This document shows positions 1 to 58,667 of a DNA stretch of 64,000 nt, piece by piece (the first letter of the stretch is position 1; each line of letters begins with the position of its first letter). The translations under genes were made by a program, and so were the position numbers. The stretch spans positions 296,306 through 360,305 of the forward strand of contig OY970126.1 of assembly GCA_963705915.1 (NCBI GenBank). The letters are read 5' to 3'. The notes below the pieces were generated by a model. That model was not told where the DNA came from, made no database searches, and saw only the letters and a list, made by a program, of their open reading frames with translations. This stretch comes from an uncultured bacterium (GTDB taxonomy: Bacteria; Patescibacteriota; Minisyncoccia; UBA6257; 2-01-FULL-56-20).

Positions 1-820
1 AACGAGCCGGCACCTCGGCGACGATAAAGTTGCCGGCGTGGTCGACGGCGCGGACATAGATATTGCTTGATAAGCTTTGATCTTCAAGAAGATACGGCGA
101 TTGGGCTACGTGCCAGGTTGGATTTGAACCGAATACCCACCCCGTCGGCACTTCCATAACTTCATAATGATCAATACCGGTGCCCTTGTCGTTCGTGGAA
201 AAGACGAGGAAGTACTGGTCATTAAATAAATTTGGATCTTGTTCGATTTGCGGCGTGAAGGGTTCCGGCCCAACGAGGGAATGCTCCGGCTCAACAGGAA
301 TTGCGACCGTGGTCGAAGCGATAAAAACCGGCGTCGACGAAACGCTCGTCGGAATAGTCGTTCCCTGACCATCGTTTGCGAGCACGGTCGCCGCTGCAAC
401 GGAAACCATTCCCGTCCCGGAGGCAATCGGCTGAAGTTCAAGTGAAACAATAGGTCCGGACGAACCATTGAAACCACCGGGGATAATGCCAGCGAGATCG
501 ACTTCGTCCGAGGAACTTGCCGCGGGAGCGGTGATCCAAAAACTCACGATCGAATCGCCGTCGTCCACGAGCTGCAAGGCGAAGAGGTTCGGGGGGAATA
601 CGAGGGACGCTTGAATCGTATTCACATCGCTCCCTTGAGTGTCGAGCGATACGTCAAAACGAACCGGCTGCCCGATGAGCGTGCTTGTTGCGGATGGCGT
701 GATACGAATCACGGCGGCGTGTGCCGGACGACTGCTTATAACCATTCCGCATATCACCACAATTACCGTAAGGGTTGCGGCGGAAAAGGTTCTTACATTT
801 GGCGAGGAAAGATATTTCAT
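1..820 (-). CDS. secreted protein with N-terminal signal peptide and cohesin-like beta-sandwich region; C-terminus lies beyond window start (partial)
   Basis: Manual translation of the minus strand from ATG at 820-818 gives MKYLSSPNVRTFSAATLTVIVVICGMVISSRPAHAAVIRITPSATSTLIGQPVRFDVSLDTQGSDVNTIQASLVFPPNLFALQLVDDGDSIV... with no stop before position 1. The start lies 7 nt below the stop of the 827..2026 gene. It is absent from the ORF track because it is truncated. Confidence 0.6.
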   Translation of the reverse strand, partial: MKYLSSPNVRTFSAATLTVIVVICGMVISSRPAHAAVIRITPSATSTLIGQPVRFDVSLDTQGSDVNTIQASLVFPPNLFALQLVDDGDSIVSFWITAPAASSSDEVDLAGIIPGGFNGSSGPIVSLELQPIASGTGMVSVAAATVLANDGQGTTIPTSVSSTPVFIASTTVAIPVEPEHSLVGPEPFTPQIEQDPNLFNDQYFLVFSTNDKGTGIDHYEVMEVPTGWVFGSNPTWHVAQSPYLLEDQSLSSNIYVRAVDHAGNFIVAEVPAR

Positions 821-826
821 GCTTGA

Positions 827-2026
827 TTAGCCCGTCCAATAATAAGCCATGATACTAAAATCGCGGAGCGTAATCGTCGACGAGCCATCGAGTTCGTATG
901 CCGCCGGCGGGTTCGGTCGGCCATACCAATACGCAAGAATTGAAAAATCAACAAGATTAACTTTGCAGTCACCGTTCAAATCCGCCTTCACGTTGCAACC
1001 GCTCGTCGAGGTGGCTTCCGCGACATCAGCGTCTCCAACGGTGAAGCCTTTCGCAATGCTGTAATTTGATATCGATGCCCCGTTCACCGATTCTGATTTT
1101 GCCGTATGATCGCCGTAGTCCAAATCTGCCGTGTCCAAGTCGTAGACATAAGCGCCGGTCGAGGCGGACGTTGCATTTCCGAAAACCGGCTGAGCAGAAT
1201 CAACTTCAATCGACACGTTTGAATTCGGAAACGACTCTCCAAAGATCACGAGCGTATCCCCTTTTTTTACCTCACTCTTATCGACATCGATGGTCGGCGA
1301 AAGGAATATGCCGGTCACATTGGTTGTCTCACCTGCGCTCACGAATATGGGGAAGGTAAAAGGATTCGACTGTCGTCCCGATGCGTCGTCTGCATAAACA
1401 TAAAAAAGATAATTTCCGGCATCAAGGTTGGAAATGGAAACAAAGAACGAGCCGGTTGGATCGGCGACCGTTTTCGACACGATCTGCCCGTCTTGGAGGA
1501 TTGTCACTTCGCTTGAGGGGTAAGCGAATCCGCTTAAGTCAACGAGGGTTGGTGCCGGATTATATCCGCCACCACCTCCGCCTCCACCACCCCCGCCGCC
1601 ACCACCTCCTCCACCACCACCGCCGCTATTTTGCGAAGGCGTGGTAACACTTGCTTCATTGCTGTAAGCGGAATATACCCCATCTTCGAATGCGCGGACG
1701 CGATAAAAATAGGTGGTGTCGGGAGCGGCGCTGTTGTCCGTATAGGTCGCAACGCCCGTCGTCGTGGTTGCAATTTCCGCATAGGTCCCCGAGACGTCGG
1801 TTTTCCGCTCAACGCTAAAACCATCTTCCGTGCCGCCGGAATTATCGGTCCAGGTGAGCGTCACTTGCGTCGGCGCGTCAGGCACCGCCGTGAGGTTCGA
1901 CGGGGCGTTCGGGGCAACAACCACGATAAGCGAGGTTTGCACGTTCGCAGCAAAAACCACCTTGCCAGCAATAGATGCAAACACCAAAATGAGCGCCCAA
2001 AGAAAAAGCTTTTTCATGTAAAACAA
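827..2026 (-). CDS. secreted protein: signal peptide, fibronectin-III-like domain, 21-residue poly-Gly linker, C-terminal dockerin-like Ca-binding repeat pair
   Basis: ORF track 399 aa. N-terminus MKKLFLWALILVFASIAGKVVFA is a signal peptide. TLTWTDNSGGTEDGFSVERK...YFYRVRAF is an FN3 signature. The C-terminus ADLNGDCKVNLVDFSILAYWYGR ... ELDGSSTITLRDFSIMAYYW matches the duplicated dockerin type-I segment pattern. Confidence 0.8.
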   Translation of the reverse strand: MFYMKKLFLWALILVFASIAGKVVFAANVQTSLIVVVAPNAPSNLTAVPDAPTQVTLTWTDNSGGTEDGFSVERKTDVSGTYAEIATTTTGVATYTDNSAAPDTTYFYRVRAFEDGVYSAYSNEASVTTPSQNSGGGGGGGGGGGGGGGGGGGGYNPAPTLVDLSGFAYPSSEVTILQDGQIVSKTVADPTGSFFVSISNLDAGNYLFYVYADDASGRQSNPFTFPIFVSAGETTNVTGIFLSPTIDVDKSEVKKGDTLVIFGESFPNSNVSIEVDSAQPVFGNATSASTGAYVYDLDTADLDYGDHTAKSESVNGASISNYSIAKGFTVGDADVAEATSTSGCNVKADLNGDCKVNLVDFSILAYWYGRPNPPAAYELDGSSTITLRDFSIMAYYWTG

Positions 2027-2032
2027 TGAATC

Positions 2033-2932
2033 TTATCGCGCTCCTCCCCTACGCAGTCGACGGATGATCGCGATAACAATACCGGCGAGTAGCACCGCGG
2101 CAATGAGCAACCAGACCCATTCCTTTTCAACGTACCGCTCGGTCTTTGATAGCCAATCAGATTTTAGAACGTTAAATACCGTTTTCTGACTCGCCACCAC
2201 CTGATGGTTTTTGTAAAATGTCACGACGCCCCAATATTGACCCACACCCATATAGAAATCGATCGGGAACGTGAGCTCATAATCTTGCACAGTGAACGGC
2301 GGCGTAGTCGGAAATCCGTCGTCTTTTTCAATATACGCAAGCCGCACCGAATCATACTGGTCATAGAGCTCAAAAACGGCGGAGTCGAACGATTCCGGAA
2401 CGTTGCCATCATTCTCAAACTTCACATCAACGAGTGGATCCTGACCTTCGTAAATATCGGGGAACGTAATTCGTTGGACCACATAATTTTCATATACGTT
2501 ATTGCCGACCGTGAGGTTTATGGCAACCTGCGCACCCAAAGCAATAGTCACCTGTCCAGCCGAACTCGGCGCGGTGTCAAATGAGATCGTTCCGTTATAA
2601 ACGCCGAGTGATGCATTTTGTGGAACCGTTATCGTAATAACCACGGGATATTGGTTGGTCCCCTCGGGTATCACAAAATTAAATCCGCGATCAATCGAGA
2701 CCCACGATTTTGCAGGAGCACCAAGCTGGAGATTGGCCTGAATCGGAAGATCCTGGTCGGGCTGATCCTGTACAAGGTAAATAGTTTGCGTGTACGTGGA
2801 TCCCGGCACTAAGTGGCCCGCATTTACAAATGGGGGCGAGACACCGAACGCCGCATGCGTCACCGGGATCGGAAGTAAAAAAAAGAATGCCACTCCCGCA
2901 ACCGCAATGACCATAAGAAAAGCCGGGCGCAT
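2033..2932 (-). CDS. cell-surface protein of unknown function (N-terminal signal peptide, C-terminal TM anchor with basic tail)
   Basis: ORF track 299 aa. N-terminal hydrophobic stretch MRPAFLMVIAVAGVAFFFLLPIPVTHA; C-terminus WVWLLIAAVLLAGIVIAIIRRLRRGGAR. Confidence 0.75.
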   Translation of the reverse strand: MRPAFLMVIAVAGVAFFFLLPIPVTHAAFGVSPPFVNAGHLVPGSTYTQTIYLVQDQPDQDLPIQANLQLGAPAKSWVSIDRGFNFVIPEGTNQYPVVITITVPQNASLGVYNGTISFDTAPSSAGQVTIALGAQVAINLTVGNNVYENYVVQRITFPDIYEGQDPLVDVKFENDGNVPESFDSAVFELYDQYDSVRLAYIEKDDGFPTTPPFTVQDYELTFPIDFYMGVGQYWGVVTFYKNHQVVASQKTVFNVLKSDWLSKTERYVEKEWVWLLIAAVLLAGIVIAIIRRLRRGGAR

Positions 2933-2985: not shown

Positions 2986-3927
2986 CTAAGAATGCCAAAG
3001 CGCCTGGAAAACATTCGTACCGGTATAGGTTCCTGTCGGTTGATTATTTGGCACTTGAGCACCCCAAAATGCGGCCTGGGCGACGCTTGTCGTGGTCGTC
3101 GGTGCCGTGAGCAAAAATCCCGTCACGGTGACGGCCGATCCGGAAAGCGGCGTACCGGATCCTGCATTAGTGTAGTTGAACGACGATGTGGCGAACGATT
3201 GATCGCTCGTTGGAATTACGTTTGCACCTGAGGTGAGCGTGGCGAACGCGTAAAGCTGCAGCGAGGTTGATGAGTTACCCGCATTTGTTGAAGTCGTCAC
3301 CTGATCCGTTGCTCCCGTGTTTGAGTTTGCAGCAAGCGTCCCGTAATTAATGGATGACGTCGTCACGTTGAGCGCGAGCAAGGTGTTTAAAGTTTCCTGC
3401 GGACTCGCGTCGCCGGTGCCAGTGGTATTATCAGGCGTTCGGAACATCACCGTAGCCGTCCAATGGTCGCTCGAGAAACTTGACGAAGCATCCGTCGCCT
3501 GGGCGAAGTAATAAACACCAAATGTTGTTGTGGTATTCTGGCTGCCGCTCGAACACGTGCTCGTGGCGGTAAAAGCGGTCGCGACATAACAATTCAAATT
3601 GTTCGGGGTCGTAAGACACGTTGACGATGTGACCCCGGCGCGATACAGCAAAACCGTTGTGGTTCCCCCAGTAATTTCACTGCAACCGTTTGAATCAGTA
3701 ATCGTTGCATTCACGCTCACACTTGTCGTGGCATTTGCGGTGAGCGTTATAGCACTCGAACCATTCAGGGTTACCGCCGAAACCTGAGGTGCGGCAGTAC
3801 CTACAATCACCTGGCTTGTGATGTTTGTGGATGTGGCACCAAGGATGACGTGGCTCACCACAAAAAGGCCCGTGAACATTGATGCCACGATAACCCAAAC
3901 GGCAACCTCAGCCTTGATACCTTTCAT
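2986..3927 (-). CDS. secreted Ser/Thr-rich protein; paralogous to domains of the 3974..7993 giant protein
   Basis: ORF track 313 aa with an N-terminal TM/signal segment. It shares a Cys-containing ~110-aa domain (ITDSNGC..ITGGTTTVLLYR..STC...NCYVATAFTA.STCS...TTTFGVYYF) and a C-terminal INYGTL...LTSGAN..TS...ATS.F block with the downstream giant protein. Confidence 0.75.
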   Translation of the reverse strand: MKGIKAEVAVWVIVASMFTGLFVVSHVILGATSTNITSQVIVGTAAPQVSAVTLNGSSAITLTANATTSVSVNATITDSNGCSEITGGTTTVLLYRAGVTSSTCLTTPNNLNCYVATAFTATSTCSSGSQNTTTTFGVYYFAQATDASSSFSSDHWTATVMFRTPDNTTGTGDASPQETLNTLLALNVTTSSINYGTLAANSNTGATDQVTTSTNAGNSSTSLQLYAFATLTSGANVIPTSDQSFATSSFNYTNAGSGTPLSGSAVTVTGFLLTAPTTTTSVAQAAFWGAQVPNNQPTGTYTGTNVFQALWHS

Positions 3928-3973: not shown

Positions 3974-6900
3974 TCACTGGCCCGTGAAGGTCACCGTACC
4001 GCTATACGTTCCACTCACGCTACTCGACGGGATGCCGAGGCCCCAATAGATCGTGCTCGAAACGAGCGAGGTCGACGTGGGTGCGGAAAGTGAAAACCCG
4101 GATACCGTCGTCGGACTGCTATTGAGAATCTGTTCACTGCCTCCAAATGTGAACGTTGACGTCGCATAATGCTGTGAACTTGTGGCGATACTGTTTGCGC
4201 CGGACGTGAGCGCCGTGCCAGACAACTGCAGTCCAATCGCGGAATTGCCGAAATTCTCGACGAAGGCTGTTTGATTGGTGGATCCGGTGTTTGTGTTTGG
4301 ACTCAGAGTGCCGTAATTAATCGACGCGCCGCCGCTTGCTCCTTCGAACGTGGCTATACCAGGATCGTTATTGTTCCCGCTTCCCACAAGTGTGCCCGTA
4401 CTCGATGCGTTGACCTGGATCGTTGAGACGATCTGCTGCATGAAGATTTGCTCGTCATCGTTATATACATCAGACGAGGTGGCTTCTGCAATCCAATTTC
4501 CCGTCGGCGTAAGATTGAGCGTATTCGGCGCCGCCGCAAAATCGCCGCCGATCATGAGTTCATTCGCCTGTGTTGTTGTTATTGCAGGGCTTGCCCACGG
4601 CGTGCCTTGCCTACAACAAGAACCCGTAGATGTTGCTTGGTCCAGGGGATTGGTCGTCGTAATCCCGGTATAGTGGGCGGCAATCATGGAAAAATCGGCT
4701 GCTAGGTCATCGCCGGGGATGGTCGAGGATACCGTCGTGACACCCGCAGCCACATTATACGCATACCAAAGGCTATAGCTCCAATGGTTACCGAAATTGA
4801 GTTGCTGATAGGCAAGATGATAGGTGTCCCCCTTATTGTCGGTCGGTGTACCGGGACTCGTATCGCCGTCGACGCCGGAATATACCTGGACGAGAACAAG
4901 CTCCCCTGCATTCGTAGAAGTCGCAAAGGTCACTGTGGAGCTCGTACATCCTGCCGAAGTAGTCCCGCATCTCTCAATCTCCACAAGTGACGGAGTCTGT
5001 GGACCCGTCGATGAAGCTGTGACGCCCAAAGCACTCAAGGTGAGCAACTCCTGGCCTGTCGAGTCTTGCGTGGCGGTTGCGTTGCTCGAATCGGTAAAAT
5101 CAACCGTGCTCATCCAATCTTGCCCCGCATACGTTCCTGAATCGGTCGGGTCGGCAAAATAATAGACGCCGAATGTGGTCGTTGCATTCACCGTATTCCC
5201 GGAACAGGTACTCGATGCGGTGAACGCCGTTGCTACGTAGCAATCTTCATTATTAGGACTCGAACTACATGTGGACGAGCCAACGCCTGAGCGATAAAGC
5301 ATGACCGTGGTTGTTCCACTGGTGATCGCGGTGCAACCATTCGTGTCAGTGATCGTCGTGCCAACACTCACGCTCGTCGTCACGTCCGGCGTGAGAACAA
5401 TGCTCGACCCCCCGTTCACGGTTGTGTTCACAACGGCAAGCGGCGGCGAGGACGATGGCCGCCAGCTTGTGGTTACGTCGCAAACACTGCAGCCAAAATT
5501 GAGATTGCCCGCGACCGTGCCCGACGCGATGCCCGAAAAAACTCCGGTACTGCTACTGATCGTGACGCCGCTAAAATTAATCCAGCCAACATTTTGGCCC
5601 CAAGCATAGCCCTGAAGGTCGCCGAGGCCGTCGTTTGTAACGCCGCTTCCGGAAGGTGCCAAGTTAATCCAGCCAAAATTCTGGCTCCAAGCGTAGCCGG
5701 TCAGCTTGCTGCTATTCACGACCATAGGCGCATCGGCGGTGTTGAAATTTGTCCATGACATTTTATCGCCCCAGGCGAAACCGGGAGCAAGAGTGGAAGA
5801 AGGCGTATAAGCAATGACTATGACGCCCTGGCCGCCACTGCCCCCATTGCCGTCATTCGAAGCTGACCCTCCTGCTCCTGCTCCGCCACCGCCATAGAGT
5901 CCGCCGCTTCCACCATTGGCGCCAGTAGCCGTCGTGACTTCTCCAGCGCTGCCACCACCGCCGCCTGAACCATGAATAGCGTCCCATTCGGTCCCTGCGC
6001 CGCCGTTGCCTCCGACGTTATCGGCAACAACTGCGTTTCCTCCGTTCGCGCCGCCGCCGCCACCGCCGTTTGAACCTGCGCTCCCAGGTGCGCCGTGGAG
6101 CCCACCTGTTCCCGATCCACCAGGGCCGGAATTGCCGCCGTCTCCTCCGGTTCCAGCAGTAGCCCTCCCTCCGTTCGCTCCATTATCAGCTCCTCCGCCG
6201 CCACCGCTAGCTTTATTACCTACAACGTTGCCGTCGTCACCTCCATTGCCTCCATTACCAAATTTCCCTGCCGCCCCGCCACCAGCACCACCTCCTGCAC
6301 CGTTCTGATTAGATGAACCATTCCCACCGGATCCTCCGGCAAAGCAAGTCGCACCAATGCTCGTTGATGAAGCCCCTCCACCCCCTCCAGTTCCGCTGCT
6401 AGCGTTACCGCCGCTTCCCCCGTTCGCCCCGACAGAAGAAGATGCAAGCGTAAGACCGTTAAACCAGGTTCCGCCACCATTCCCTCCTGCCTCTGCTGTC
6501 CCAGTAGCGCCGGCACCGGCGGCCCCAACACGAATATCGATAATTTCCCCCGGGGTCAGCGCGAGATTGGATATTTTACAATAGGCGCCGCCGCCGCCGC
6601 CATCTCCGGAGTCACCGCCGTCATTTATCCGATCTCCGCCACCTCCGCCGCCGATGACTTCGATCGTGTTGCTCGCAGAGTTCCAATCAGAAGGAACCGT
6701 CCATGTGGTCAAGGCCGTGTTTGTAATAAAGATTGGACCGGTTGTATCTCTGAATGTTGCGATGCCGGGAAAGTTGAGCGTGCCGCTGGCCGCCGACCCC
6801 GTACTCGAAACATTATTCTGAATAGATGAGACGATCTGATCTTCGTATGCCATCCCGTTGTTTTCAGCACTGTCCGTTGAAGTCGCTTCCAACGTCCAGT

Positions 6901-7993
6901 TTCCCGTTGCAGAAAGCGAACAGGCACCGGCGGTATTTATATAACACCAATCCTGGCCCACTATAACTTCGTTGGCATAGTTGGTCGTCACGGCACCGCT
7001 CGCCCAAGGTCTAGTTTGGGCTCCGGTTGCCAGCGTTGAAGTTGAAACATCGAGCCATGCTGACGTTGCCATGCCTGTATAATGCGCAGCAATCAACGAC
7101 GCTTTAGTTCCACTATCCCCCGTCCCTGGCGTCGAAGACACCGTGGTTACGCCTGCAGGAACATCCGCCGCGTACCACAACGAGTAGTCGTATTGAGATT
7201 CTATATTCGGAACATCGTAGACTTCGGTATAAATATCGCCCTTGTTGTCAGTGGGCGTACCGATTACAGTGCCACCGCCCCCTGTATAGGCCTCGAGGAC
7301 GATGAGCTCTCCGGCAGTTGTAGGGGCACCAAAGGTAATACTCGTGGTGCTATTTCCGGCTTCAGTCTCCACGAGTGTCGGCGCCCCGGTTGCGGCAGTC
7401 GTGTAGGTGGCATAAATAGTCGGAGCCTCCGCATAAAGACCCCCCCCACTTGGAGCAGTACTCGGAAAAGACGACGCCGTTCCTTGACAAGCGCCGTTCG
7501 CAGAACCACCACAATAAAAACTATTCGCTGGACTGCTGTTATTGTATTCATAATCCATCTGTCGGCCGTTGATGCTCCCACCGCTCGCCTCCGCAACCGC
7601 GAACCAATATTGTGTGCCCGAAGTAATGCTCGCGGTTAGATATGTAGTCACGTTTCCGTAGGTCGCGGGGAGCGGGCTGCCGTTCACGTTTGATGCTATG
7701 AGTGTGCCTGGCTGGCCACTGTTGTCAGTGTATAATGCCACGCCCATAACGTTGCCCGTTGCACCCAAATCGTCTTGTACGTTTTCAAAGGTGACTGAGG
7801 TGAGTGTTCCGTTATCACTTGGCACAGACTGTGCCTTGAAATACATGACGTATGAATTGCCGTCAACACCGGTTGTATTAGGCGTCTGATTGCCAAAACG
7901 CATGGCCTGTTGCGAGGCATACGTTGAAAGCGGCGAGAGAAAAAGACCAAATCCAAGGAGCCCAAAAAATAGTGCGGTAGTTTTTGAAGACAT
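3974..7993 (-). CDS. giant secreted protein with internal domain duplication and ~280-aa Gly-rich low-complexity core
   Basis: ORF track 1363 aa from 8065. The signal-peptide-like MSSKTTALFFGLLGFGLFLSPLSTYA begins at the internal Met (7993), which avoids overlap with the upstream gene. It has two ~125-aa paralogous blocks (TAGELIVLEAYTGGGG... and NAGELVLVQVYSGVDG...) and a GGxGG-rich core. Confidence 0.8.
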   Translation of the reverse strand: MSSKTTALFFGLLGFGLFLSPLSTYASQQAMRFGNQTPNTTGVDGNSYVMYFKAQSVPSDNGTLTSVTFENVQDDLGATGNVMGVALYTDNSGQPGTLIASNVNGSPLPATYGNVTTYLTASITSGTQYWFAVAEASGGSINGRQMDYEYNNSSPANSFYCGGSANGACQGTASSFPSTAPSGGGLYAEAPTIYATYTTAATGAPTLVETEAGNSTTSITFGAPTTAGELIVLEAYTGGGGTVIGTPTDNKGDIYTEVYDVPNIESQYDYSLWYAADVPAGVTTVSSTPGTGDSGTKASLIAAHYTGMATSAWLDVSTSTLATGAQTRPWASGAVTTNYANEVIVGQDWCYINTAGACSLSATGNWTLEATSTDSAENNGMAYEDQIVSSIQNNVSSTGSAASGTLNFPGIATFRDTTGPIFITNTALTTWTVPSDWNSASNTIEVIGGGGGGDRINDGGDSGDGGGGGAYCKISNLALTPGEIIDIRVGAAGAGATGTAEAGGNGGGTWFNGLTLASSSVGANGGSGGNASSGTGGGGGASSTSIGATCFAGGSGGNGSSNQNGAGGGAGGGAAGKFGNGGNGGDDGNVVGNKASGGGGGADNGANGGRATAGTGGDGGNSGPGGSGTGGLHGAPGSAGSNGGGGGGANGGNAVVADNVGGNGGAGTEWDAIHGSGGGGGSAGEVTTATGANGGSGGLYGGGGAGAGGSASNDGNGGSGGQGVIVIAYTPSSTLAPGFAWGDKMSWTNFNTADAPMVVNSSKLTGYAWSQNFGWINLAPSGSGVTNDGLGDLQGYAWGQNVGWINFSGVTISSSTGVFSGIASGTVAGNLNFGCSVCDVTTSWRPSSSPPLAVVNTTVNGGSSIVLTPDVTTSVSVGTTITDTNGCTAITSGTTTVMLYRSGVGSSTCSSSPNNEDCYVATAFTASSTCSGNTVNATTTFGVYYFADPTDSGTYAGQDWMSTVDFTDSSNATATQDSTGQELLTLSALGVTASSTGPQTPSLVEIERCGTTSAGCTSSTVTFATSTNAGELVLVQVYSGVDGDTSPGTPTDNKGDTYHLAYQQLNFGNHWSYSLWYAYNVAAGVTTVSSTIPGDDLAADFSMIAAHYTGITTTNPLDQATSTGSCCRQGTPWASPAITTTQANELMIGGDFAAAPNTLNLTPTGNWIAEATSSDVYNDDEQIFMQQIVSTIQVNASSTGTLVGSGNNNDPGIATFEGASGGASINYGTLSPNTNTGSTNQTAFVENFGNSAIGLQLSGTALTSGANSIATSSQHYATSTFTFGGSEQILNSSPTTVSGFSLSAPTSTSLVSSTIYWGLGIPSSSVSGTYSGTVTFTGQ

Positions 7994-8030
7994 AACGATC
8001 CGTACTTTAATAATACCAGAGAAACGAGCC

Positions 8031-10379
8031 TTACTTGCTCTTCCCTTTCGGAACCGAAAGCTCATTTTGGCTCGCGGGCGCGGAAGACGTTGCGTTCGAT
8101 GGGATTGGTTCCCCTGCCTGCAAGTTCGCGATCGCGGTCTCTATCTGCTGATTCCCAGGATTGAGCTGGAGTGCAAGATCGAATTGCTGAAGCGCTTGAG
8201 CATCAAGCCCTTGAGCCGCATCAACCACACCGAGATAATAGTGGGCATTCGCATAATCGGGCTCAAGAATCGCCGCCACCTGGAACTCCTGTTCAGCCTG
8301 TGCAATTTGGTTGCTTTGATAATCAAGGTAACCAAGCTCAAAAGCCACGCCCGGGTCGAGCGGGTTTTGCTGTTCGAGTTCTTGTACCCGTGAGATTGCC
8401 TGAGCGGTATTTCCCTCTTTTATATATAAATTAATGAGCGCGATGCGGGCATCGGTATAATCGTCTTTGAGCGACAGCGCTTTTTCAAAAAGCGCTTCTG
8501 CCTGGCTCCAGTCGGCGGTTTGGGAGGCGTTACTCAGGGAACCCGCGCTACCCGGTGCGAGACCGGCGGACTCCACAAAGACGCGGCCCATCGCGAGATC
8601 CCACTGAGGGTTCTGTGGATCCAAAGCTGCTGCCTGCCCGTAACTGTTTTCAGCAAGCGTGTCGGCTCCACCGACGAGCGGCATAATACTTTCATATACG
8701 GAGCCAAGATTTCCCCAATTCGCCGCGTCGCGGCCATTAAGCTGAGTGGCTCCTTGCGCGGCCTGCACGGCATTTGCGAGTACCGACGGCAATTCGGCGG
8801 TGCCCGTGGCAGCGTTTTCCGCTATGAGTTGTTGTGCTTCCTGGATTAAAAGTTGTGATGCGCCGCGAAGATACACGTCTGTACGATCAAGCGCAAGTGC
8901 CTGATTCATATCGGCAAAGGCCTGGCTCAGGTTGCCCGACGCTTCTTCGTCGCTCACGCGGCCAAAAAAGATGGCAGCCCCATACCGCTCACCGCCGGCA
9001 TACATCGTGGCGAGCGTCCCTGCGGCAATGATCATGAGTATGATCAATATGAAGAACGAGAAGCTGCGGGGCGCTCCATCAAACGAAATATTCTCCTCGG
9101 GAGCATCAACGAGGAATGCACCGATGAATAGAAAGAAAAGAATACCTTCGGCGAAAAACAGCGGATACAAGAAAAGCGCCAATCCGAGGAACGCCGCCGC
9201 AGAGAGCAGCATCGCGCGATCCGGCGAAAACGATTGGATATCGAGCAACCACCATCCAACAAGACTCAGCAATCCGAGGAACAGGAGCCAGGCAACCAGC
9301 CCCCCCGTGGCGAGCAACGTGAGCACGAAATCGTATCCCTGCATTGGCGTTGTATTCCATAAGCTTGTTTCATTCACACTGACCGGCTTCCATAATGCAA
9401 AATCGAGATAGAATGTCGACGGCCCCGTGCCAACAAGCGATCGCCAACCAAGAAGCGACGGACCGACAGCGTCAAACGTTGCACCGATACTCGGACGGAC
9501 ATCCGGCGGCGCTTGATGAAGCCACGGCAAGCGCGGACCGACGAGCGACAAGAATAACGCCACAACGACAATGATAAATGCATATCGAAATCCCTGGCTC
9601 GTATCCGACGCCGACCGCAGCGCCGCGAGAATAATCGTGAAGAGCGCTACCGCGAGCCATAATAATTGATAATTGATGAGGAGGAGGCCGAGTGCTGCGG
9701 CGCAGGCTATCACCACAAAACTCCATCGCTCAAAACGGGAAAAGGGCTTAGTGCCAGCAACGCCAAGCGCAGCGAGTACGGCAACGAGCAATATCCCCCA
9801 TGCGGCAATCGAGCCGATGGGATTCTGTAACACAGATGATCCGGCTCCAAAAAGCTGCACAAGTCCGATGATTGAAGCGACGAGCAATCCAACACCTGCA
9901 CACAACCCAACGGTCTTCATATCGCGCGGGCGCAAAAAATAATACGTGAGATAACAAATCACGGCGCAGATGATAAGCGCGAGTACTGAATCAGGTTGAT
10001 CAAGCGACCCATAAAAACTTTGTGCGGGAGCGACCGAAGTCCACGCGCTCACAATCTCCGCAAGAATGAAGAGTCCGAGCGTTGGGAAAAACCATGACCG
10101 TGGATATGATAGTGTGCGCTCCTCAAAAACCGCGCCAAGAAAACAAACAAAGGCGGCAGCGGCGAGAAAACCGATCACCATGATCTTGTTAATCCCCACC
10201 GGATCAACCGTTAACGGTAAATAGAAAACGGGCACAAGCAGCGCAATTGCAAAAATGCAAAAACGTCCGATCGATCGAAATGCACGCGCCCGCTCACGGG
10301 GTCGCGGTATATCGCTCGGCGCTGGCGGCGGACCTTCGTAATAGGTTTCCTCGATGATAACGGTTTCTGAAGTGCGCAT
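8031..10379 (-). CDS. O-antigen ligase/Wzy-like polytopic membrane protein fused to C-terminal TPR repeats
   Basis: ORF track 782 aa. It has more than 10 predicted TM helices, followed by a TPR-like repeat region (AEALFEKALSLKDDYTDARIALINLYIKEGNTAQAI... YANAHYYLGVVDAAQGLDAQALQQFDLALQLNPGN). Confidence 0.75.
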   Translation of the reverse strand: MRTSETVIIEETYYEGPPPAPSDIPRPRERARAFRSIGRFCIFAIALLVPVFYLPLTVDPVGINKIMVIGFLAAAAFVCFLGAVFEERTLSYPRSWFFPTLGLFILAEIVSAWTSVAPAQSFYGSLDQPDSVLALIICAVICYLTYYFLRPRDMKTVGLCAGVGLLVASIIGLVQLFGAGSSVLQNPIGSIAAWGILLVAVLAALGVAGTKPFSRFERWSFVVIACAAALGLLLINYQLLWLAVALFTIILAALRSASDTSQGFRYAFIIVVVALFLSLVGPRLPWLHQAPPDVRPSIGATFDAVGPSLLGWRSLVGTGPSTFYLDFALWKPVSVNETSLWNTTPMQGYDFVLTLLATGGLVAWLLFLGLLSLVGWWLLDIQSFSPDRAMLLSAAAFLGLALFLYPLFFAEGILFFLFIGAFLVDAPEENISFDGAPRSFSFFILIILMIIAAGTLATMYAGGERYGAAIFFGRVSDEEASGNLSQAFADMNQALALDRTDVYLRGASQLLIQEAQQLIAENAATGTAELPSVLANAVQAAQGATQLNGRDAANWGNLGSVYESIMPLVGGADTLAENSYGQAAALDPQNPQWDLAMGRVFVESAGLAPGSAGSLSNASQTADWSQAEALFEKALSLKDDYTDARIALINLYIKEGNTAQAISRVQELEQQNPLDPGVAFELGYLDYQSNQIAQAEQEFQVAAILEPDYANAHYYLGVVDAAQGLDAQALQQFDLALQLNPGNQQIETAIANLQAGEPIPSNATSSAPASQNELSVPKGKSK

Positions 10380-10382
10380 GCC

Positions 10383-13300
10383 TTATGTGCCCGAATTATC
10401 GGAAGTTGAAGACGGCGTCGAAGGTGGCGGAGTAGCCGGAGGCGTCGTTGATGCGTCGGTTGAGGTGTCGGTCGATGTGTCAACCTGCGGTGGCGTGGAA
10501 GTTGGTGTGGACGTCGGCGTTGATGGCACGACCGGCAACGTTGACGACGGATCAGTGCTCGTTGTACTGGCGCTCGTTACGTCGGTGCTCGTTGTGCTCG
10601 TGTCCACGGTGTCGTCCGTGCTTGTAGGGTTTGTATCGTCATCGCTCGGCGTGGAGGTCGCCGTTGATGTTGGTGTTATTACCGGTGTGGGCATTGGTGT
10701 TGGCGGCGCAACAGGAGTCGATGCGGGCGGCGGCGTCTGTGATCCTGTTTGATTCTGCAACAATCCTTGAAGCTGGTTGCTTGTGATACACGTTTCCTGA
10801 ATGCAAAGGAGGTTGGTCGTCACCCGATCCACGACGATGCCCTTAAGCGTTGCAATGCCGTCGCTCACAAAAATGCCCATATTTGAGAGCGCCGCCTGGA
10901 CGTATTGGGTTACCTCGGCGAGAACCGACTGGTCTCCATTTGAAATAACGGCGGGGATACCGACCATCGTACTGCTTGCGTCGTCATTGCCGGGCGCCCA
11001 GTGTGGATTCACAAAAACTAAGATCTCCGGCGTCGATGTGGCGGTGGACGAAGTGTCCGCGTCAGCACCATCGTCGCCACTGTACGCCTGAAGCGCCTCA
11101 CCGATCACCATGCCAGGACCAATCGCCTTCACGGCAACGCCGGGTTCGATGGTCGAAGCCGCGAGTAAATCGCCAGGGTTGATCGGCCCATTTTCTGCAG
11201 AAACTTTCACGGGAACCCTGCCGGCAAGCGCAATGACCGCCTCTGTTGATGTTGTGAGCGATTCGTTATCACCAGCAATGTATGTTTCGCCGTTATCAAA
11301 GACAACGCCAGGATTCGTTGAAACGACGCCGATCACCGTCTCGTCATCTCCGCCACGAGATTTGGCAAGGCCCGGAATCGCGTCTTCGTCGGTTGTTGTT
11401 GCATCGGTGGTTGTTGCATCATGCGGGATCGCCACAACATCGCCCGGCTCCGTTGGTTCGATCGTGGGATACGCTTCGGCCAAGTCCATATTGCATGAGC
11501 CGCTCGTCGTGGCGTTGAATCCCCCGCTCGAGAGACACTGGCCGTAAAATCCTCCGCCGGCGTCCACCACGCCGTTCACATAGAGCATTGCACTACTTGT
11601 CGTCGTCGTTCCGATGCTGAGATTACCGGTTGAACTCGAAATGAAAATCGTTGACGTCGCCGAAAGTGTGCTCGTCGAGGTGTAGTACGGGAAATAATAA
11701 TCGACGCTCGTCGCGGAAGTACCGACGCCACCGGTGACGTTTGAAACGACCGTGGTCGTCGCGCCATAGTATTCCGTTTGCACCGAATTCACCGTGGAAG
11801 ATTCTGCCGTGGCCGAAGAGAGACGAACATCGATTTCCAGTGTTTGGTTTGAGGTCGAATCAATGCTCACAACACCGCCAGCCTGAAGTGTTGTGCCAAC
11901 CGCAGTGCTACTTGCGGTTCCAATGGTTGCAATATAATTTCCGATTTGGTTGTTTGTCGTCCCAGAAGCGTTTGATAAATTAAATTGCGCCGTCCAACCC
12001 GCTGGGTTTGCTGAGGCGGTTATGTTCGCACTTGTTGAGCTCGCCACAAGCTGCCCGCCATAATACATGAGCCATCCAATGCCGTGCGTGGTGGGAACTT
12101 TGAGCGTTCCGAACATCGTGACCTGGATAAAGCCTCCTGCCGTTCCGAGCGTATTGCCCGGAACGGTGTATTTATAAACCGATGTCGAGGCCGCTGTTCC
12201 CTGCACGTTCACAACCGTCGTTGTTGCGTTAAGTTGCTCTGCGTAGGTAACCGTCGATGTCGTCACGGTGAAGCTGCCGCTTGTACAACCGCACTGCGCC
12301 AAAGAAAGGCTCCCACCGGAAAGCGTGAGTCCATTACCGATACCAAGCGCACCGACCGCGCCGCTGCCGTTTGCGTAAAGGACGGACGAAAGCTGGCTCG
12401 TGATTGAAAGGTTGGTTGTTGTGACGTTCCCAAGGACGGTTGTTGACGCGAGCGACACCAAGCCGCCCGATTGATTGAACGCGCCGACCACGTTCAGTTT
12501 GCCGTTGTCAGTCGAGGTTCCGATGGCGGTATCGCCGGAAACAATAAGGCCGTTTGAAGGTGCCGCCGCGCCCCCGTTGCCAGCATACGAACCAATCGAT
12601 GCATTGCCCCCAACATCGAGCGTGCTCTTGATGATGCCCGGGGTATTGCTGTTCGGATCAATAATGGTCTGCCCGTCGGGAGCAACCATGATCGCGGGGT
12701 TGCCCACGGTATATGCTCCAGAACTTGACGCCAAATGATAAAGATCCCACGAGCTGCCGCCTGTTGCCCCTGTCTTGGATTCGATGAGGCTAAAAATCCA
12801 CCCGTCTTTATTGTGATCAATTGCATTCCAGGTAGAACCCGAAGCGTTGAAATAAGCATTTCCTTCCATATAAGAATAAAAGTTGCCGTTGTTGGAAGTT
12901 TGATCGAGGGCGAGCAATCCGGTGTTTCCGCCCGTCGCATCTCCAACGTCTATGTCACCTTGGCCAGACGACGCGTTCCCGTAAGCCCACAAGCCCGTTG
13001 ACGTTGCGGCGAACGGCCACGTGGCACTTCCAATAATGATGTCACCGGCAGAGGTCTCGTAGAGTGATGACGTTGCCGATACCGTACTCGAGCCGGACGT
13101 TGCCCACGTCATAAATTGATTCGCAACGATGCTTGAGGTGCTGTTCGCAAATACATTACCTCCGCCGCAACCAACGGAAGCGATGGTGCCGCTTGCGTTC
13201 GTTCCAAGGCACTGTGCTGATGCAACACCGGTGATGGTCACATTCGTTGTCGTCACATTACCGTTTGCGCCGAGTTGGAATTTAGTTGAACTGTTAACTT

Positions 13301-14138
13301 CAAAATTTATAAAATCTTGCTTAGATCCGGATACAATGTTCGCACCAAGGAATGTGCCGGACGCATTGCCGCCGGTGATGTAATTATTGCCAAGAAGAAC
13401 AAGCGTTGACGTTGTCGATTGCACCGGCAGGCCAGCGACCGAGAAAGCCGAATACGGCGACGAAGTGCCGATTCCCACAAAACCGCTATTGGCGACACTG
13501 AAGATGGGCGTCGCTGTCGCAACATAAAGGATATCGCCAGCGGGGTTCGTTGTTGTTCCTAAATTGAAATCAGAATTAATTTGCGCTGCATTCAACGTTA
13601 CGACTCCAGAGGATGACACGTCGAACTGACTGGAGCTATTCACTTCAAAATTCACAAAGTCGCCGTTGTATCCCGACGGTGCGTTCGCACCAAGGAATGT
13701 GCCGGACGCATTGCCGCCGGTGATGTAGTTATTGCCCAAAAGCACGAGTGTCGAGGTGGACCCTTGCACCGGCATACCGGCGACAGAGAGATCAGAGTAC
13801 GGCGCAGACGTACCTACGCCAAAATTTCCGTTCGTCGTATTCAAATAAAGAAGCGAGGTGTTTGCGGTGATCGTTCCGCTCGTGTCGTTATCAAAGAGAA
13901 CACCACCGACGGGAAGCGTGGTTGTCGAAAAAAGCGGCGGCTGGACGGTGCAGTTTGTGCTCGTTGGCGCGCAACCAGGGTCGAGCGTCTCCCCTGGCGT
14001 GAAAGGACTCCCCGGCGGATCAGCAAAAACGTGCTGGAGGGCAAAAGAAAACACGAGATAGAACCCACAAGCAATGGCACAAAATAACAAAAACCGGCTC
14101 TTTGCCTGATGGGGAGTTTTTTGAGGGTTTACGGTCAT
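10383..14138 (-). CDS. giant membrane-anchored surface protein with tandem ~110-aa repeats and Thr/Pro/Ser-rich C-terminal tail
   Basis: ORF track 1251 aa with an N-terminal TM segment (FLLFCAIACGFYLVFSFAL). The unit STLVLLGNNYITGGNASGTFLGAN...FVNFEVNSS is repeated in tandem. The C-terminal ~130 aa are T/P/S/D low complexity. Confidence 0.8.
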   Translation of the reverse strand: MTVNPQKTPHQAKSRFLLFCAIACGFYLVFSFALQHVFADPPGSPFTPGETLDPGCAPTSTNCTVQPPLFSTTTLPVGGVLFDNDTSGTITANTSLLYLNTTNGNFGVGTSAPYSDLSVAGMPVQGSTSTLVLLGNNYITGGNASGTFLGANAPSGYNGDFVNFEVNSSSQFDVSSSGVVTLNAAQINSDFNLGTTTNPAGDILYVATATPIFSVANSGFVGIGTSSPYSAFSVAGLPVQSTTSTLVLLGNNYITGGNASGTFLGANIVSGSKQDFINFEVNSSTKFQLGANGNVTTTNVTITGVASAQCLGTNASGTIASVGCGGGNVFANSTSSIVANQFMTWATSGSSTVSATSSLYETSAGDIIIGSATWPFAATSTGLWAYGNASSGQGDIDVGDATGGNTGLLALDQTSNNGNFYSYMEGNAYFNASGSTWNAIDHNKDGWIFSLIESKTGATGGSSWDLYHLASSSGAYTVGNPAIMVAPDGQTIIDPNSNTPGIIKSTLDVGGNASIGSYAGNGGAAAPSNGLIVSGDTAIGTSTDNGKLNVVGAFNQSGGLVSLASTTVLGNVTTTNLSITSQLSSVLYANGSGAVGALGIGNGLTLSGGSLSLAQCGCTSGSFTVTTSTVTYAEQLNATTTVVNVQGTAASTSVYKYTVPGNTLGTAGGFIQVTMFGTLKVPTTHGIGWLMYYGGQLVASSTSANITASANPAGWTAQFNLSNASGTTNNQIGNYIATIGTASSTAVGTTLQAGGVVSIDSTSNQTLEIDVRLSSATAESSTVNSVQTEYYGATTTVVSNVTGGVGTSATSVDYYFPYYTSTSTLSATSTIFISSSTGNLSIGTTTTSSAMLYVNGVVDAGGGFYGQCLSSGGFNATTSGSCNMDLAEAYPTIEPTEPGDVVAIPHDATTTDATTTDEDAIPGLAKSRGGDDETVIGVVSTNPGVVFDNGETYIAGDNESLTTSTEAVIALAGRVPVKVSAENGPINPGDLLAASTIEPGVAVKAIGPGMVIGEALQAYSGDDGADADTSSTATSTPEILVFVNPHWAPGNDDASSTMVGIPAVISNGDQSVLAEVTQYVQAALSNMGIFVSDGIATLKGIVVDRVTTNLLCIQETCITSNQLQGLLQNQTGSQTPPPASTPVAPPTPMPTPVITPTSTATSTPSDDDTNPTSTDDTVDTSTTSTDVTSASTTSTDPSSTLPVVPSTPTSTPTSTPPQVDTSTDTSTDASTTPPATPPPSTPSSTSDNSGT
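13290..13730 (-). repeat. tandem direct repeat (~345-bp unit, 2 copies, diverged) inside the 10383..14138 CDS
   Basis: 13290-13470 and 13620-13800 share long identical stretches, for example gcaccaaggaatgtgccggacgcattgccgccggtgatgta.ttattgcc.aaaag.ac.ag. Coordinates are approximate. Confidence 0.6.
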
Positions 14139-14260: not shown

Positions 14261-14863
14261 CTATTTTTTGAAATTTTTGTCCACAGCCTCCCAATGTACC
14301 ACGCTCCACCACGCCTCAATATAGTCCGGACGCTTGTTTTGATGCTTGAGATAATAGGCGTGCTCCCAAACGTCGAGCCCAAGAATTGGCGTCTGGTTTT
14401 TCATGATTGGGCTGTCTTGGTTCGGAGTCGTCACCACCGCGAGACTTCCCTTGTCGAGCACGAGCCACGCCCATCCGGATCCAAAAACTCCAGCGGCAGC
14501 TTTCGTGAATTCTTCTTTGAACTTGGCGAAGTCGCCGAATGATTTTTTTATTTTATCCGCGAGGTTGCCCGTCGGCTCACCGCCCTCTTTTGGCCCCATG
14601 ATCGTCCAGAAAAAAGAATGATTCGCGTGTCCCCCGCCATGATTTCTTACCGCAGTGCGAATATCCTCCGGCACCGAGTCGATCGAGCTGAGCAATTCCG
14701 CGAGCGGTTTATCCGCAACCTCTGGATGCTTATCGAGCGCTTCGTTCAACTTTGTGACGTACGTTTGATGATGCTTTGTGTGGTGGATTTCCATTGTCTT
14801 CGCATCGATGTATGGTTCGAGCGCATCGTAGGCATAGGACAGTTTTGGAAGTTCATATTTCAT
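14261..14863 (-). CDS. sodA: Fe/Mn superoxide dismutase
   Basis: ORF track 200 aa: [36 protein letters not shown] ... [28 protein letters not shown]. These are canonical Fe/Mn-SOD motifs. Confidence 0.95.
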
Positions 14864-14932
14864 GATTTTAATGATATTTTTCTTGCGGCGTCTATAATTC
14901 TATAATACACTATACGCGGTCGTTCGTTTCAT

Positions 14933-15003
14933 TGGGGGGTCGTCTAACGGTAGGACATGGGACTTTGAATCCCAGAATAAAGGTCCGACTCCTTTCCCCC
15001 CAG
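14933..15003 (+). tRNA. tRNA-Gln (anticodon UUG); unusual T-loop
   Basis: Hand-folded: acceptor UGGGGGG/CCCCCCA (U1-A72), discriminator G73, D-stem GUC/GAC, anticodon stem UGGGA/UCCCA with loop CUUUGAA, T-stem AAAGG/CCUUU. The T-loop UCCGACU is non-canonical (C55). No encoded CCA. Confidence 0.6.
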
Positions 15004-15036
15004 CTCTCTTGTGGATCGACTCGACTGGGAATTGAG

Positions 15037-15255
15037 CTAAAGCTTCTCCCGGAGAAACTCAAAAACGATATAGCCGATAAAGGCGGCGACAATTGCGATG
15101 ATAACATTAGTCACGCTAAAAATATCTTTCAGTGCAACGATTAAGGGTTTTCCATATCCCCTACTACGCGTGTACTCTCCCATCAAAAGATTGGCATAGA
15201 AAAGGAAGATAATAAAAGCCATTTCAACTACCGCTCTGCGGATCTTGTTTTTCAT
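15037..15255 (-). CDS. small two-TM membrane protein, directly downstream of truncated kdpD
   Basis: ORF track 72 aa with two hydrophobic helices. Its start is 9 nt below the kdpD stop. Confidence 0.45.
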   Translation of the reverse strand: MKNKIRRAVVEMAFIIFLFYANLLMGEYTRSRGYGKPLIVALKDIFSVTNVIIAIVAAFIGYIVFEFLREKL

Positions 15256-15263
15256 AGAAATCT

Positions 15264-16376
15264 TTAAATCATGACGATATGCACCTCCGGCAAATTCTGA
15301 ATGAGAAGTTCGGTAATCGATGTATGGAACTTGCCGAATAATGCTTTTTTTCTCGGATGGCCTTGCACGAGATGCGTGACCCCGTTCGCGTGGACGAACT
15401 GTATGAGGGATTGAGCGATGTTGTCGTCTTTCAAGGTAATCATCTCCGCCCCCATGCTTTCGGCAAGCTTCATGATCGCCGCGATCTCATCGTGATGGGG
15501 AGCAAGCGCCTTGCTTTCATCCGCGGCAGTCGAGACATGGACGACATACCACGTCGCGTTCAGCTGCGAAGCCAATCGCGATGCGCTCCGCAGAATCGCT
15601 TCCGCATTCGGTTCCCCGCCGCGAATCCGCACCATTACCTTGTTCAATGCGCTCGGTTTTACGGCGACGTTGAATCTTTCACGCTGCCGTTTGTCGAGAA
15701 GGTTGGCCATCTCGCTCAGCGTAAGCTCTCGCAGCCTCGTAAGATTCTTTGGCGTGAAAAAATTGTTAAGCGCCGTGTCGATGCGGTCAAGCTTGTATAT
15801 TTTGCCGTCTCTCAACCGTTCGATCAGATCATCGGCCTCAATATCGACATTGGTGATGAGGTCGGCCTGTGCCACGACGGAATCGGGAATGCGCTCGGCG
15901 ACCTTAACTCCAGTGGCTTCTTCCACAATATTATAGAGTGATTCAAGATGTTGGATATTGAGTGTCGTAATGACGTTGATACCCGCACCCAGTAATTCTT
16001 CAACGTCCTCGTATCGTTTTTTGTTCTTGCTGCCGGGGGCGTTCGTATGCGCGAGTTCGTCCACCAAAACCACGGTCGGATGTCTTTTAATGACGGCATA
16101 GACATCCATCTCTTTTAGCTCCAAGTTGCCGTGCCTCACAATTCTTGGCGGGACAATCTCCAAACCTTCCGCCTTCACCATTGTGTCGGGGCGGTCATGA
16201 GGCTCCACATAGCCGATAACCACATCCGTGCCGATCTCTTTCAGATGCTGCGCCTTCAAAAGCATGCGGTAGGTTTTTCCAACGCCCGCCGCCGAGCCGA
16301 GATAGACCTTTAGATAGCCACGCTTCTTGCGCTCGCTGAGCTTCAAAATATCGTCGGACGCTTTGCCATTATCCAT
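15264..16376 (-). CDS. kdpD: truncated KdpD: N-terminal KdpD sensor domain plus USP domain only (no TM region, no histidine kinase)
   Basis: ORF track 370 aa: LKVYLGSAAGVGKTYRMLLKAQHL...VVLVDELAHTN (KdpD N-terminal P-loop region), then a USP-like C-terminal half. The ORF ends without HisKA/HATPase domains. Confidence 0.85.
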   Translation of the reverse strand: MDNGKASDDILKLSERKKRGYLKVYLGSAAGVGKTYRMLLKAQHLKEIGTDVVIGYVEPHDRPDTMVKAEGLEIVPPRIVRHGNLELKEMDVYAVIKRHPTVVLVDELAHTNAPGSKNKKRYEDVEELLGAGINVITTLNIQHLESLYNIVEEATGVKVAERIPDSVVAQADLITNVDIEADDLIERLRDGKIYKLDRIDTALNNFFTPKNLTRLRELTLSEMANLLDKRQRERFNVAVKPSALNKVMVRIRGGEPNAEAILRSASRLASQLNATWYVVHVSTAADESKALAPHHDEIAAIMKLAESMGAEMITLKDDNIAQSLIQFVHANGVTHLVQGHPRKKALFGKFHTSITELLIQNLPEVHIVMI

Positions 16377-16399
16377 GTCTACATCATATCAGTCCCTGC

Positions 16400-16996
16400 C
16401 TATTTCTGTATCGGGTATTTTTGGTCGAGCGCCATGTTGAGCATAAGAACGTTCACACCTGGCTCGCCGAAGACATCAATGCTCCTTCCGTCGATATTCT
16501 CATTGATCAGCGCTTGAATGTTCGCGAGGCTGGTATTCCTCGCTTTCGCGACGATGGGTGCTTGAATCGCCGCATTCGCCAAACTGATCTCTGGATCAAG
16601 GCCGCTTGCGGAACCGGTCACGGCGTCCGCAGGTACGGGAGTGGACGTCGAAAGATCGTACTGCGTCCGATATGCCGCAATAGCCTGCTGAATCGTCGTT
16701 GCAAGTTTCTGTGAGGTGGGACCAAGATTGCTGCCACCGGAAGCCGTCGGATCATATCCAGCACCAGCATACGAAGGACGCGAATTGAAATATTGGGGTC
16801 CGGTGAATGTCTGCCCGATAAGCTCCGAGCCAATCACTTGTCCTTGGCCATTCGTAATCAAGCTGCCGTTCGCTTGGGAGGGAAAAAGCGCCTGGCCGAA
16901 GGCCCATACGACGAGCGGATAGACGCCACAGCATATGACCGCGAAGACCAACGTTGCGATGATCGATAATTTGAGTTGTTGAAGGATTTCTTTCAT
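16400..16996 (-). CDS. kdpC: K+-transporting ATPase subunit C
   Basis: ORF track 198 aa, N-terminal TM, KdpC-like. Sits in a kdpFABC arrangement. Confidence 0.9.
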   Translation of the reverse strand: MKEILQQLKLSIIATLVFAVICCGVYPLVVWAFGQALFPSQANGSLITNGQGQVIGSELIGQTFTGPQYFNSRPSYAGAGYDPTASGGSNLGPTSQKLATTIQQAIAAYRTQYDLSTSTPVPADAVTGSASGLDPEISLANAAIQAPIVAKARNTSLANIQALINENIDGRSIDVFGEPGVNVLMLNMALDQKYPIQK

Positions 16997-17001
16997 TGGA
17001 T

Positions 17002-19020: not shown

Positions 19021-19026
19021 GGATGC

Positions 19027-26660: not shown

Positions 26661-26661
26661 G

Positions 26662-27561: not shown

Positions 27562-27619
27562 TATTGTAATAATAGCATGCGAGGGCGGCTGCCCGCGGCG
27601 CTCCTGCCCAAAACATCCG

Positions 27620-58651: not shown

Positions 58652-58667
58652 ATGAACGCAGGAAAAA

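Follow-up and report, generated by a model that had tools for sequence, protein, structure and literature searches.

What a dockerin and a cohesin encoded by two adjacent genes might do in a member of the Patescibacteria is the question raised by a 64,000-nt stretch of DNA from an uncultured bacterium of this group (contig OY970126.1, positions 296,306 to 360,305; here called the window), in which the two genes, designated gene A and gene B, lie in an array of genes for surface proteins, all on the minus strand. Cohesins and dockerins are familiar chiefly as the paired modules that hold cellulosomes together, and to our knowledge their roles outside cellulosomes are mostly unknown. When the six frames of the window were searched with hidden Markov models (HMMs) of the dockerin and the cohesin, exactly one dockerin and one cohesin were returned, in genes A and B, and a further cohesin gene, gene C, lies beyond position 1 of the window. 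Genes A, B and C are best read, with a probability of roughly 60%, as a conserved non-cellulosomal cohesin-dockerin module of the Patescibacteria that tethers a protein to the cell surface.

Gene A and its dockerin module

Gene A (827..2026, minus strand) encodes a protein in which, according to its reading frame, Pfam matches, an AlphaFold (AF2) model and its homologs, a fibronectin type III (FN3) domain, a polyglycine run, two immunoglobulin (Ig)-like domains and a dockerin follow one another. The open reading frame gives 399 residues from a TTG at 2026 and ends with a TAA at 829..827, and both this frame and the peptide strings that an earlier reading of the DNA without database searches (the sequence-only reading) had quoted from genes A and B are present as claimed. 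In an identical metagenome contig (L001), gene A is called from an ATG at 2017, which yields 396 residues beginning with MKKLF, and this ATG is the likelier start. The signal peptide was read from the sequence as MFYMKKLFLWALILVFASIAGKVVFA/AN (1949..2026, minus strand), and the model places an N-terminal helix at residues 2-17. It is followed by the FN3 domain (residues 41-127; 1646..1906, minus strand), which is matched by Pfam fn3 with an E-value of 9.8e-9 and 35.8 bits (gathering score 25) and by FN3 domains in the PDB, and by a run of glycines encoded by mixed GGN codons (residues 135-154; 1565..1624, minus strand), which also occurs in orthologs and is a flexible linker. The sequence-only reading was thus correct in placing an FN3 domain and a glycine linker here, the linker having 20 rather than 21 glycines. 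Two Ig-like beta-sandwich domains come next (1025..1537, minus strand), the first a Big_6 domain at residues 164-225 (E 1.7e-10; 41.5 bits, exceeding the gathering score of 27.6) and the second, at residues ~243-334, seen in the strands of the AF2 model. This model, built from a 57-sequence alignment with a mean predicted local distance difference test (pLDDT) score of 89.5, comprises a helix for the signal peptide, three domains folded as beta-sandwiches, the glycine linker, which is disordered and the sole segment with a pLDDT below 50, and two C-terminal loop-helix units. A homology search found 1105 homologs of gene A, many with precomputed PF00404; since many shorter homologs are without the FN3 domain and the polyglycine, the conserved core of the protein is taken to be the Ig domains plus the dockerin.

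The dockerin module occupies residues 349-399 (830..982, minus strand), at a C-terminus that reads DLNGDCKVNLVDFSILAYW ... ELDGSSTITLRDFSIMAYYWTG, and was delimited by Pfam, phmmer, a family profile, the AF2 model and a census of Ca2+ ligands. Because the glycine linker of the full-length protein drew single-chain antibody (scFv) and linker artefacts, the PDB search was rerun with the C-terminal 71 residues against 177,635 PDB sequences, where phmmer matched the solved dockerin 2y3n_B (E 1.8e-7) along with other dockerins. A profile of 50 family C-termini likewise returned 2y3n_B (E 1.6e-7), aligned end to end (profile 4-56 on chain 4-60), and the next ten matches were all dockerin modules or dockerin-bearing cellulosomal enzymes, including 5nrm_B, 5nrk_B, 4fl4_A, 1daq and 2mte. 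The gene A ortholog of a Magasanikbacteria genome (L007) reaches 31.8 bits with Pfam Dockerin_1, which exceeds the gathering score of that family. In the model, the module consists of two tandem loop-helix (F-hand) repeats, with loops at 346-357 and 375-386 and helices at 355-363 and 384-392 in the numbering of the 396-residue protein and with pLDDT values of 92-96, as the sequence-only reading had expected of a structure prediction.

Loop 1, DLNGDCKVNLVD (nt 947-982, minus strand), leads into the first helix and carries the canonical Ca2+ ligands D-x-N-x-D-x-x-x-N-x-x-D, of which the D/N/D/N/D positions are kept in about 50-56 of 57 family sequences. Loop 2, ELDGSSTITLRD (nt 860-895, minus strand), precedes the second helix and is degenerate; the corresponding repeat is canonical in ~38 of the 57 sequences and degenerate in the subclade of the window, with R-x-D-x-A in close orthologs. 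A pair of cysteines flanks loop 1 in about half of the dockerin family, gene A included. Across the family, the helix residues DFSI[LM]AYW/YYW are almost invariant in both repeats, which points to a conserved protein partner. Judged from these profile matches and ligand patterns, the C-terminus of gene A is a genuine, though divergent, dockerin.

Two cohesin carriers and the conservation of the triad

Gene B (2..820, minus strand) is cut by the edge of the window, whose start its frame leaves after 273 of about 308 codons, and according to its reading frame, homologs and AF2 model its product carries a signal peptide followed by a cohesin and then an FN3-like domain. Its ATG at 820 lies six bases past the TAA of gene A (829..827), that is, 7 nt past the last stop base at 827, which is the spacing that had been described, and this start is supported by orthologs with full N-terminal signal peptides. 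The signal peptide itself was read from the sequence (MKYLSS...PAHA/AVIRITPS). The part missing beyond position 1 was supplied by a 100%-identical protein (P0001) encoded on L001, where a transmembrane helix is followed by RRKGKR. The sequence-only reading had proposed that the product is secreted; the signal peptide agrees with this, and a freely secreted protein is contradicted by the C-terminal transmembrane helix (256-282) and the basic residues behind it.

The AF2 model of gene B (63 sequences, mean pLDDT 93.6) has an all-beta domain at residues 11-143, a second beta domain at 166-245 and a C-terminal helix at 256-282. The cohesin domain, an all-beta sandwich, was placed at residues ~36-170 (311..715, minus strand) from Foldseek, from Pfam matches of relatives and from NCBI names. 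The FN3/Ig-like domain proximal to the membrane (residues ~185-272; 5..268, minus strand) was placed from invariant alignment columns, from the alignment to 2w1n and with an HMM of the second domain of gene B (d2), and is the most conserved part of the gene B family, with the motifs GIDHYEV and YVRAVDxAGN. When the model was compared with the PDB by Foldseek, almost all matches were cohesins (42 of the first 42), led by 2w1n (4.1e-11), the cohesin and FN3 double module of Clostridium perfringens GH84C, and including 2vo8, 2jh2, 4ums, 1g1k and 2xdh among the top entries, which bears out the cohesin-like beta-sandwich that had been suspected behind the signal peptide. Target-normalised TM-scores were 0.70-0.77 against type I and 0.51-0.61 against type II cohesins, and the alpha-helix and beta-flap insertions that mark type II are missing from the model, in which DSSP assigns strands and no helix within residues 11-143.

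At the level of sequence, 604 relatives of ~300 residues were found, mostly metagenomic, with Candidatus Paceibacterota among several named sources, and two of them are named 'cohesin domain-containing protein' by NCBI. Scanned singly, 18 of 63 relatives match Pfam Cohesin at E ≤ 0.1 (best E 6e-7), one relative (P0087) carries precomputed PF00963, and the family profile gives a marginal PDB match to the Ruminococcus flavefaciens cohesin 5aoz_A (E 0.047). NCBIfam returned no meaningful match for any of the five proteins scanned, gene B among them. A blasticidin deaminase, which came up as a single-sequence PDB match of gene B at E 0.079, was dismissed as lying at chance level. Gene B therefore encodes a divergent cohesin on an FN3-like spacer with a C-terminal membrane anchor.

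The sequence-only reading had taken genes A and B for a minimal pair at the end of an array of secreted proteins. This does not hold, as a paralogous, membrane-anchored cohesin gene follows: gene C (L001:10813-12207) overlaps the end of gene B by 40 nt and encodes 464 residues with a signal peptide, a cohesin, further Ig-like domains, a transmembrane helix and a charged cytoplasmic tail of ~50 residues. Its cohesin shares 34% identity with that of gene B (E 5e-23), as well as the motifs S-I-x-x-W, G-I/V-x-PG and L-x-NDG-x-GT, and on the same contig fmt and def lie downstream of it on the opposite strand.

How widely this arrangement is kept was read from a locus survey with one genome per species, in which a single, deliberately narrow peptide pattern retrieved at least 288 gene B relatives. 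The conservation counts refer to the best 80 of 288 loci, taken from species-representative genomes of many Patescibacteria lineages (among them Paceibacterota, Kaiser-, Wolfe-, Nomura-, Magasanik-, Falkow-, Uhr-, Doudna-, Komeili- and Peribacteria), which were searched with HMMs for the dockerin, the cohesin and d2. An open reading frame that ends in a dockerin lies upstream of the gene B relative and on the same strand in 71 of 71 testable loci (those with more than 700 nt upstream), within 400 nt in 64 of them, and the median gap between the end of the dockerin domain and the start of the cohesin domain is 92 nt. An additional cohesin gene is found downstream in 71 of the 74 loci that offer enough DNA. 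In seven loci the number of cohesin genes rises to between three and five. A single dockerin per locus is the norm. What is conserved across the Patescibacteria is a dockerin gene accompanied by two or more cohesin genes. In close relatives, the order of a 313-residue protein, a 299-residue protein, dockerin, cohesin and cohesin is retained, and the core triad also occurs where the neighbours differ, next to genes for ATP synthase, as well as in a genome of the Magasanikbacteria.

Variants of this layout were also seen, as at L069, L084 and L044. In some genomes a single dockerin gene is followed by three to five cohesins in tandem, and in L044 two separate dockerin/cohesin sets are present in one locus.

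A proposed surface tether and its alternatives

If genes A, B and C form a surface tether, the three products might work together as follows. The product of gene A would be exported by way of a Sec-type signal peptide and would serve as a non-enzymatic stalk, composed of the FN3 domain, the 20-glycine hinge, the two Ig-like domains and the terminal dockerin, with Ca2+ probably held at least in dockerin loop 1. The products of genes B and C would be exported as well and retained in the cytoplasmic membrane by one helix at the C-terminus, whose basic residues face the inside of the cell, so that each would carry one cohesin outward, membrane-distal on an FN3/Ig-like spacer. The dockerin of gene A would then plug into the cohesin of B and/or C, fixing the stalk on the cell surface. 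The analysis establishes the identities and folds of the domains, the elements of the topology and the close, conserved linkage of the genes. From the signal peptides, the C-terminal anchor with its basic residues and the short distances between the genes, the proteins would be exported and expressed together, and a role in surface assembly is in line with both the signal peptides and the membrane anchor at the C-terminus. The benefit may lie in surface architecture or in the adhesion of small, presumably host-associated cells; because the module is kept so consistently in very small genomes, it likely matters for how the envelope is organised or how these bacteria attach to other cells.

Several results weigh against this reading. 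Pfam Dockerin_1 matches gene A at residues 348-393 (profile 2-52 of 57) with an E-value of 0.0064 and 17.1 bits, short of the gathering score of 22.9, and repeat 2 reads E-x-D-x-S-x-x-x-T-x-x-D, without the canonical Ca2+ ligands at positions 1, 5 and 9. When the model of the entire gene A protein was compared by Foldseek, FN3/Ig arrays dominated the matches, and the dockerin fold was not separately matched. Pfam Cohesin (PF00963) gave no match at E ≤ 1 to the gene B protein of the window. A tether leaves unaccounted for the ratio of one dockerin to at least two cohesins. When distance matrices were compared over 69 dockerin-cohesin-cohesin triads (mirror-tree), the dockerin correlated with the cohesins of B and C at r = 0.42 and r = 0.46, values inflated, like all such correlations, by shared descent, and being this similar they do not single out the partner cohesin. 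What had been called a typical type I dockerin with a duplicated Ca2+-binding segment is accordingly borne out as a dockerin (by 2y3n_B and the family profile) and not as a typical one, given the degenerate loop 2 and the 17.1 bits; the label 'type I' is not settled, because 2y3n_B, the best sequence match, comes from an entry titled type II by its depositors. For both Pfam families named by the sequence-only reading, the window proteins fall short, Dockerin_1 being below threshold and Cohesin unmatched, and relatives give matches.

A small cellulosome-like system, which would gather polysaccharide-degrading enzymes on the surface, is highly improbable. It would account for the presence of cohesin and dockerin modules, but the 64 kb hold a single dockerin, each carrier has one cohesin, a scaffoldin with several cohesins is absent, and searches of A, B, C and the five other array proteins turned up neither a glycoside hydrolase nor a carbohydrate-binding module (CBM) nor any further enzyme domain. 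As the layout recurs across the group without enzymes, the module probably serves as a tether and not in cellulose degradation. Pfam gave no SLH match and no sortase (LPXTG) anchor was found, the anchor being the C-terminal transmembrane helix with its basic residues.

Other alternatives keep the modules and change the partners. The dockerin of A might bind only gene C, with B having another ligand or with B and C forming a heterodimeric receptor, in which case the adjacent pair flagged at the outset would not be cognate. This is rather unlikely, although the cohesin of C is more conserved than that of B (mean p-distance 0.53 as against 0.64), C has the slightly better correlation with the dockerin, also as a partial correlation (partial r 0.39 as against 0.30), gene C is present in nearly all testable loci (71/74), and B and C bear the same signature motifs. 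The differences between the correlations are small, however, and share the inflation by common descent; gene B, moreover, immediately adjoins gene A and is equally universal in its linkage to the dockerin gene. It is a little harder still to credit that the proteins are cohesin and dockerin homologs that do not bind one another, the sandwiches binding instead a host surface, a glycan or a cell-wall polymer and the dockerin-like tail acting as a Ca2+-stabilised structural or adhesive element. Outside cellulosomes, the presence of these domains alone does not show what is linked (PMC9012536), and both the degeneration of the second Ca2+ loop in the clade of the window and the two to five cohesins per single dockerin would be in keeping with such a role; the strict same-strand linkage in 71 of 71 loci across distant lineages speaks against it, as do the near-invariant helices of both repeats, which point to a protein partner.

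More speculatively, the triad could be a core surface device in which one internally symmetric dockerin bridges or switches between B and C, and in which the tail of C, some 50 residues long, couples the stalk to the cell interior. This extension of the tether is doubtful; if true, the triad would belong to the machinery with which these ultra-small bacteria assemble their envelope or cling to a host.

The surrounding array and comparison with known systems

The array continues upstream of gene A on the same strand. Adjoining gene A is a 299-residue protein that has a signal peptide and is anchored by a transmembrane segment at its C-terminus (2033..2932, minus strand), syntenic in close relatives, which on sequence grounds is possibly a distant WxLIP_PGBD-like protein: its counterpart in L006 (L006:7861-8769) scores 34.9 bits with PF06030, exceeding the gathering score of 27.3, and matches the window protein by BLASTP (E 4e-5), and Pfam finds no PF06030 match in the 299-residue protein of the window itself. 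Next comes a 313-residue Thr/Ser-rich secreted protein with no assigned family (2986..3927, minus strand), which has 246 homologs, with no precomputed Pfam domain among the 120 listed. Two stretches of the following protein, a secreted one of 1363 residues (3974..8065, minus strand), are paralogous to it, residues 871-1019 at 58% identity and residues 1247-1360 at 50%. The larger protein has a Gly-rich centre (Gly_rich_2, E 3.7e-4, below threshold) and measures 622 to 1363 residues in syntenic loci. The remainder of the array (8031..14138) encodes a 782-residue TPR protein (8031-10379, minus strand) and, at the array start, a 1251-residue protein with no family match (10383-14138, minus strand).

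Directly upstream of the array lies a gene for an Fe/Mn superoxide dismutase (14261-14863, minus strand), which has the same neighbour in L005, and adjoining it is a kdpA-kdpB-kdpC cluster (14261-20751 with the dismutase, minus strand), in which a KdpD-sensor/Usp protein gave no match to a histidine-kinase domain. Terminal oxidases are uncommon in the Patescibacteria, and the window holds a cluster for a cyo-type quinol oxidase (23800-28528, minus strand), made up of a UbiA-family heme O synthase-like gene (27620-28528), COX2 (26662-27666) and COX1 (from 26660), followed by reading frames that, judged by eye from their translations, resemble oxidase subunits III and IV. The frame of COX1 shifts by +1 near ~25.72 kb, with the open reading frame 25413-26660 spanning profile positions 1-238 of 436 and the remainder lying in another frame; the gene is either a pseudogene broken by this shift or was misread in sequencing. 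Further along, a reverse transcriptase (RVT_1, E 8e-27; 57671-58720, minus strand) adjoins two family-less reading frames (58701-59399 and 59520-60272), beside which stands a pair encoding a STAS-like DUF4325 protein (60367-60636) and a histidine-kinase-like ATPase (60649-61473); the segment 57671-61473 may be a retron- or defence-type island.

Among known systems, the WxL/WxLIP clusters of Firmicutes (PF06030) resemble the locus in that a protein of ~300 residues with a signal peptide and a C-terminal transmembrane helix likewise lies upstream of gene A and in that small and large secreted proteins share C-terminal domains. A WxL/csc-like cluster is nevertheless not supported: no WxL domain was matched in the window proteins, in four locus counterparts of the 313-residue protein or among the precomputed domains of its 120 listed homologs, and WxLIP_PGBD appears only in the one distant counterpart (L006) of the 299-residue protein, which leaves a resemblance only.

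The best structural matches are the cohesin-FN3 and dockerin modules of secreted glycoside hydrolases of Clostridium perfringens (2w1n, 2vo8, 2jh2, 2o4e, 2jnk/2ozn), of which 2w1n has the same order of cohesin, then FN3, as gene B, and the dockerin-bearing chain 2jnk is a weak match in the dockerin profile search (E 0.24). In C. perfringens these modules are appended to large enzymes, which they join into complexes, whereas in the triad there is no enzyme and the cohesin is membrane-anchored. With the cellulosomal type I pairs (C. cellulolyticum 1g1k/2vn5, C. thermocellum OlpC 4dh2 and P. cellulosolvens 4ums/2y3n), gene B has in common the all-beta cohesin that lacks the type II helix and flaps, and the dockerin of gene A has in common the two loop-helix repeats. 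The logic of cellulosomal anchoring scaffoldins is also the same, a single-cohesin anchor holding a dockerin-bearing protein on the cell. In contrast to the cellulosomal pairs, however, the module in the Patescibacteria has no enzymes, no multi-cohesin scaffoldin and a transmembrane helix instead of SLH domains or a sortase signal; loop 2 is degenerate in the clade, a Cys pair brackets loop 1 in roughly half of the family, and the linker between the dockerin repeats is 4-7 residues shorter than in 2y3n_B and 5nrm_B.

That cohesin and dockerin modules exist outside cellulosomes is established, as summarised from Peer et al. (2009), together with verified archaeal pairs, in a genomics paper on anaerobic methanotrophic (ANME) archaea, whose authors emphasise that finding the domains does not in itself tell what they do (PMC9012536). 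The module described here is like the non-cellulosomal ones in that summary, with single cohesins and dockerins in organisms that do not degrade cellulose and no large scaffoldins (Peer et al., 2009, via PMC9012536), and the gene B model matches the cohesin of Archaeoglobus fulgidus (2xdh) with a target-normalised TM-score of 0.77. It is unlike them in that the cohesin carriers are bitopic, with a C-terminal transmembrane helix, in that the dockerin sits on a non-enzymatic FN3/Ig stalk, and in that dockerin, cohesin and cohesin form a fixed operon across the Patescibacteria. Literature searches, of incomplete coverage, returned no description of such a dockerin-cohesin-cohesin arrangement in the candidate phyla radiation (CPR)/Patescibacteria and only unrelated papers on the rumen, biogas and Omnitrophota. 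Automated NCBI annotation already labels some relatives as cohesin proteins. The fixed triad with its bitopic cohesin carriers varies a known kind of module, and its value lies in its strict conservation within a poorly understood bacterial group and in a proposed interaction that lends itself to testing, the three proteins being small and soluble apart from their anchors.

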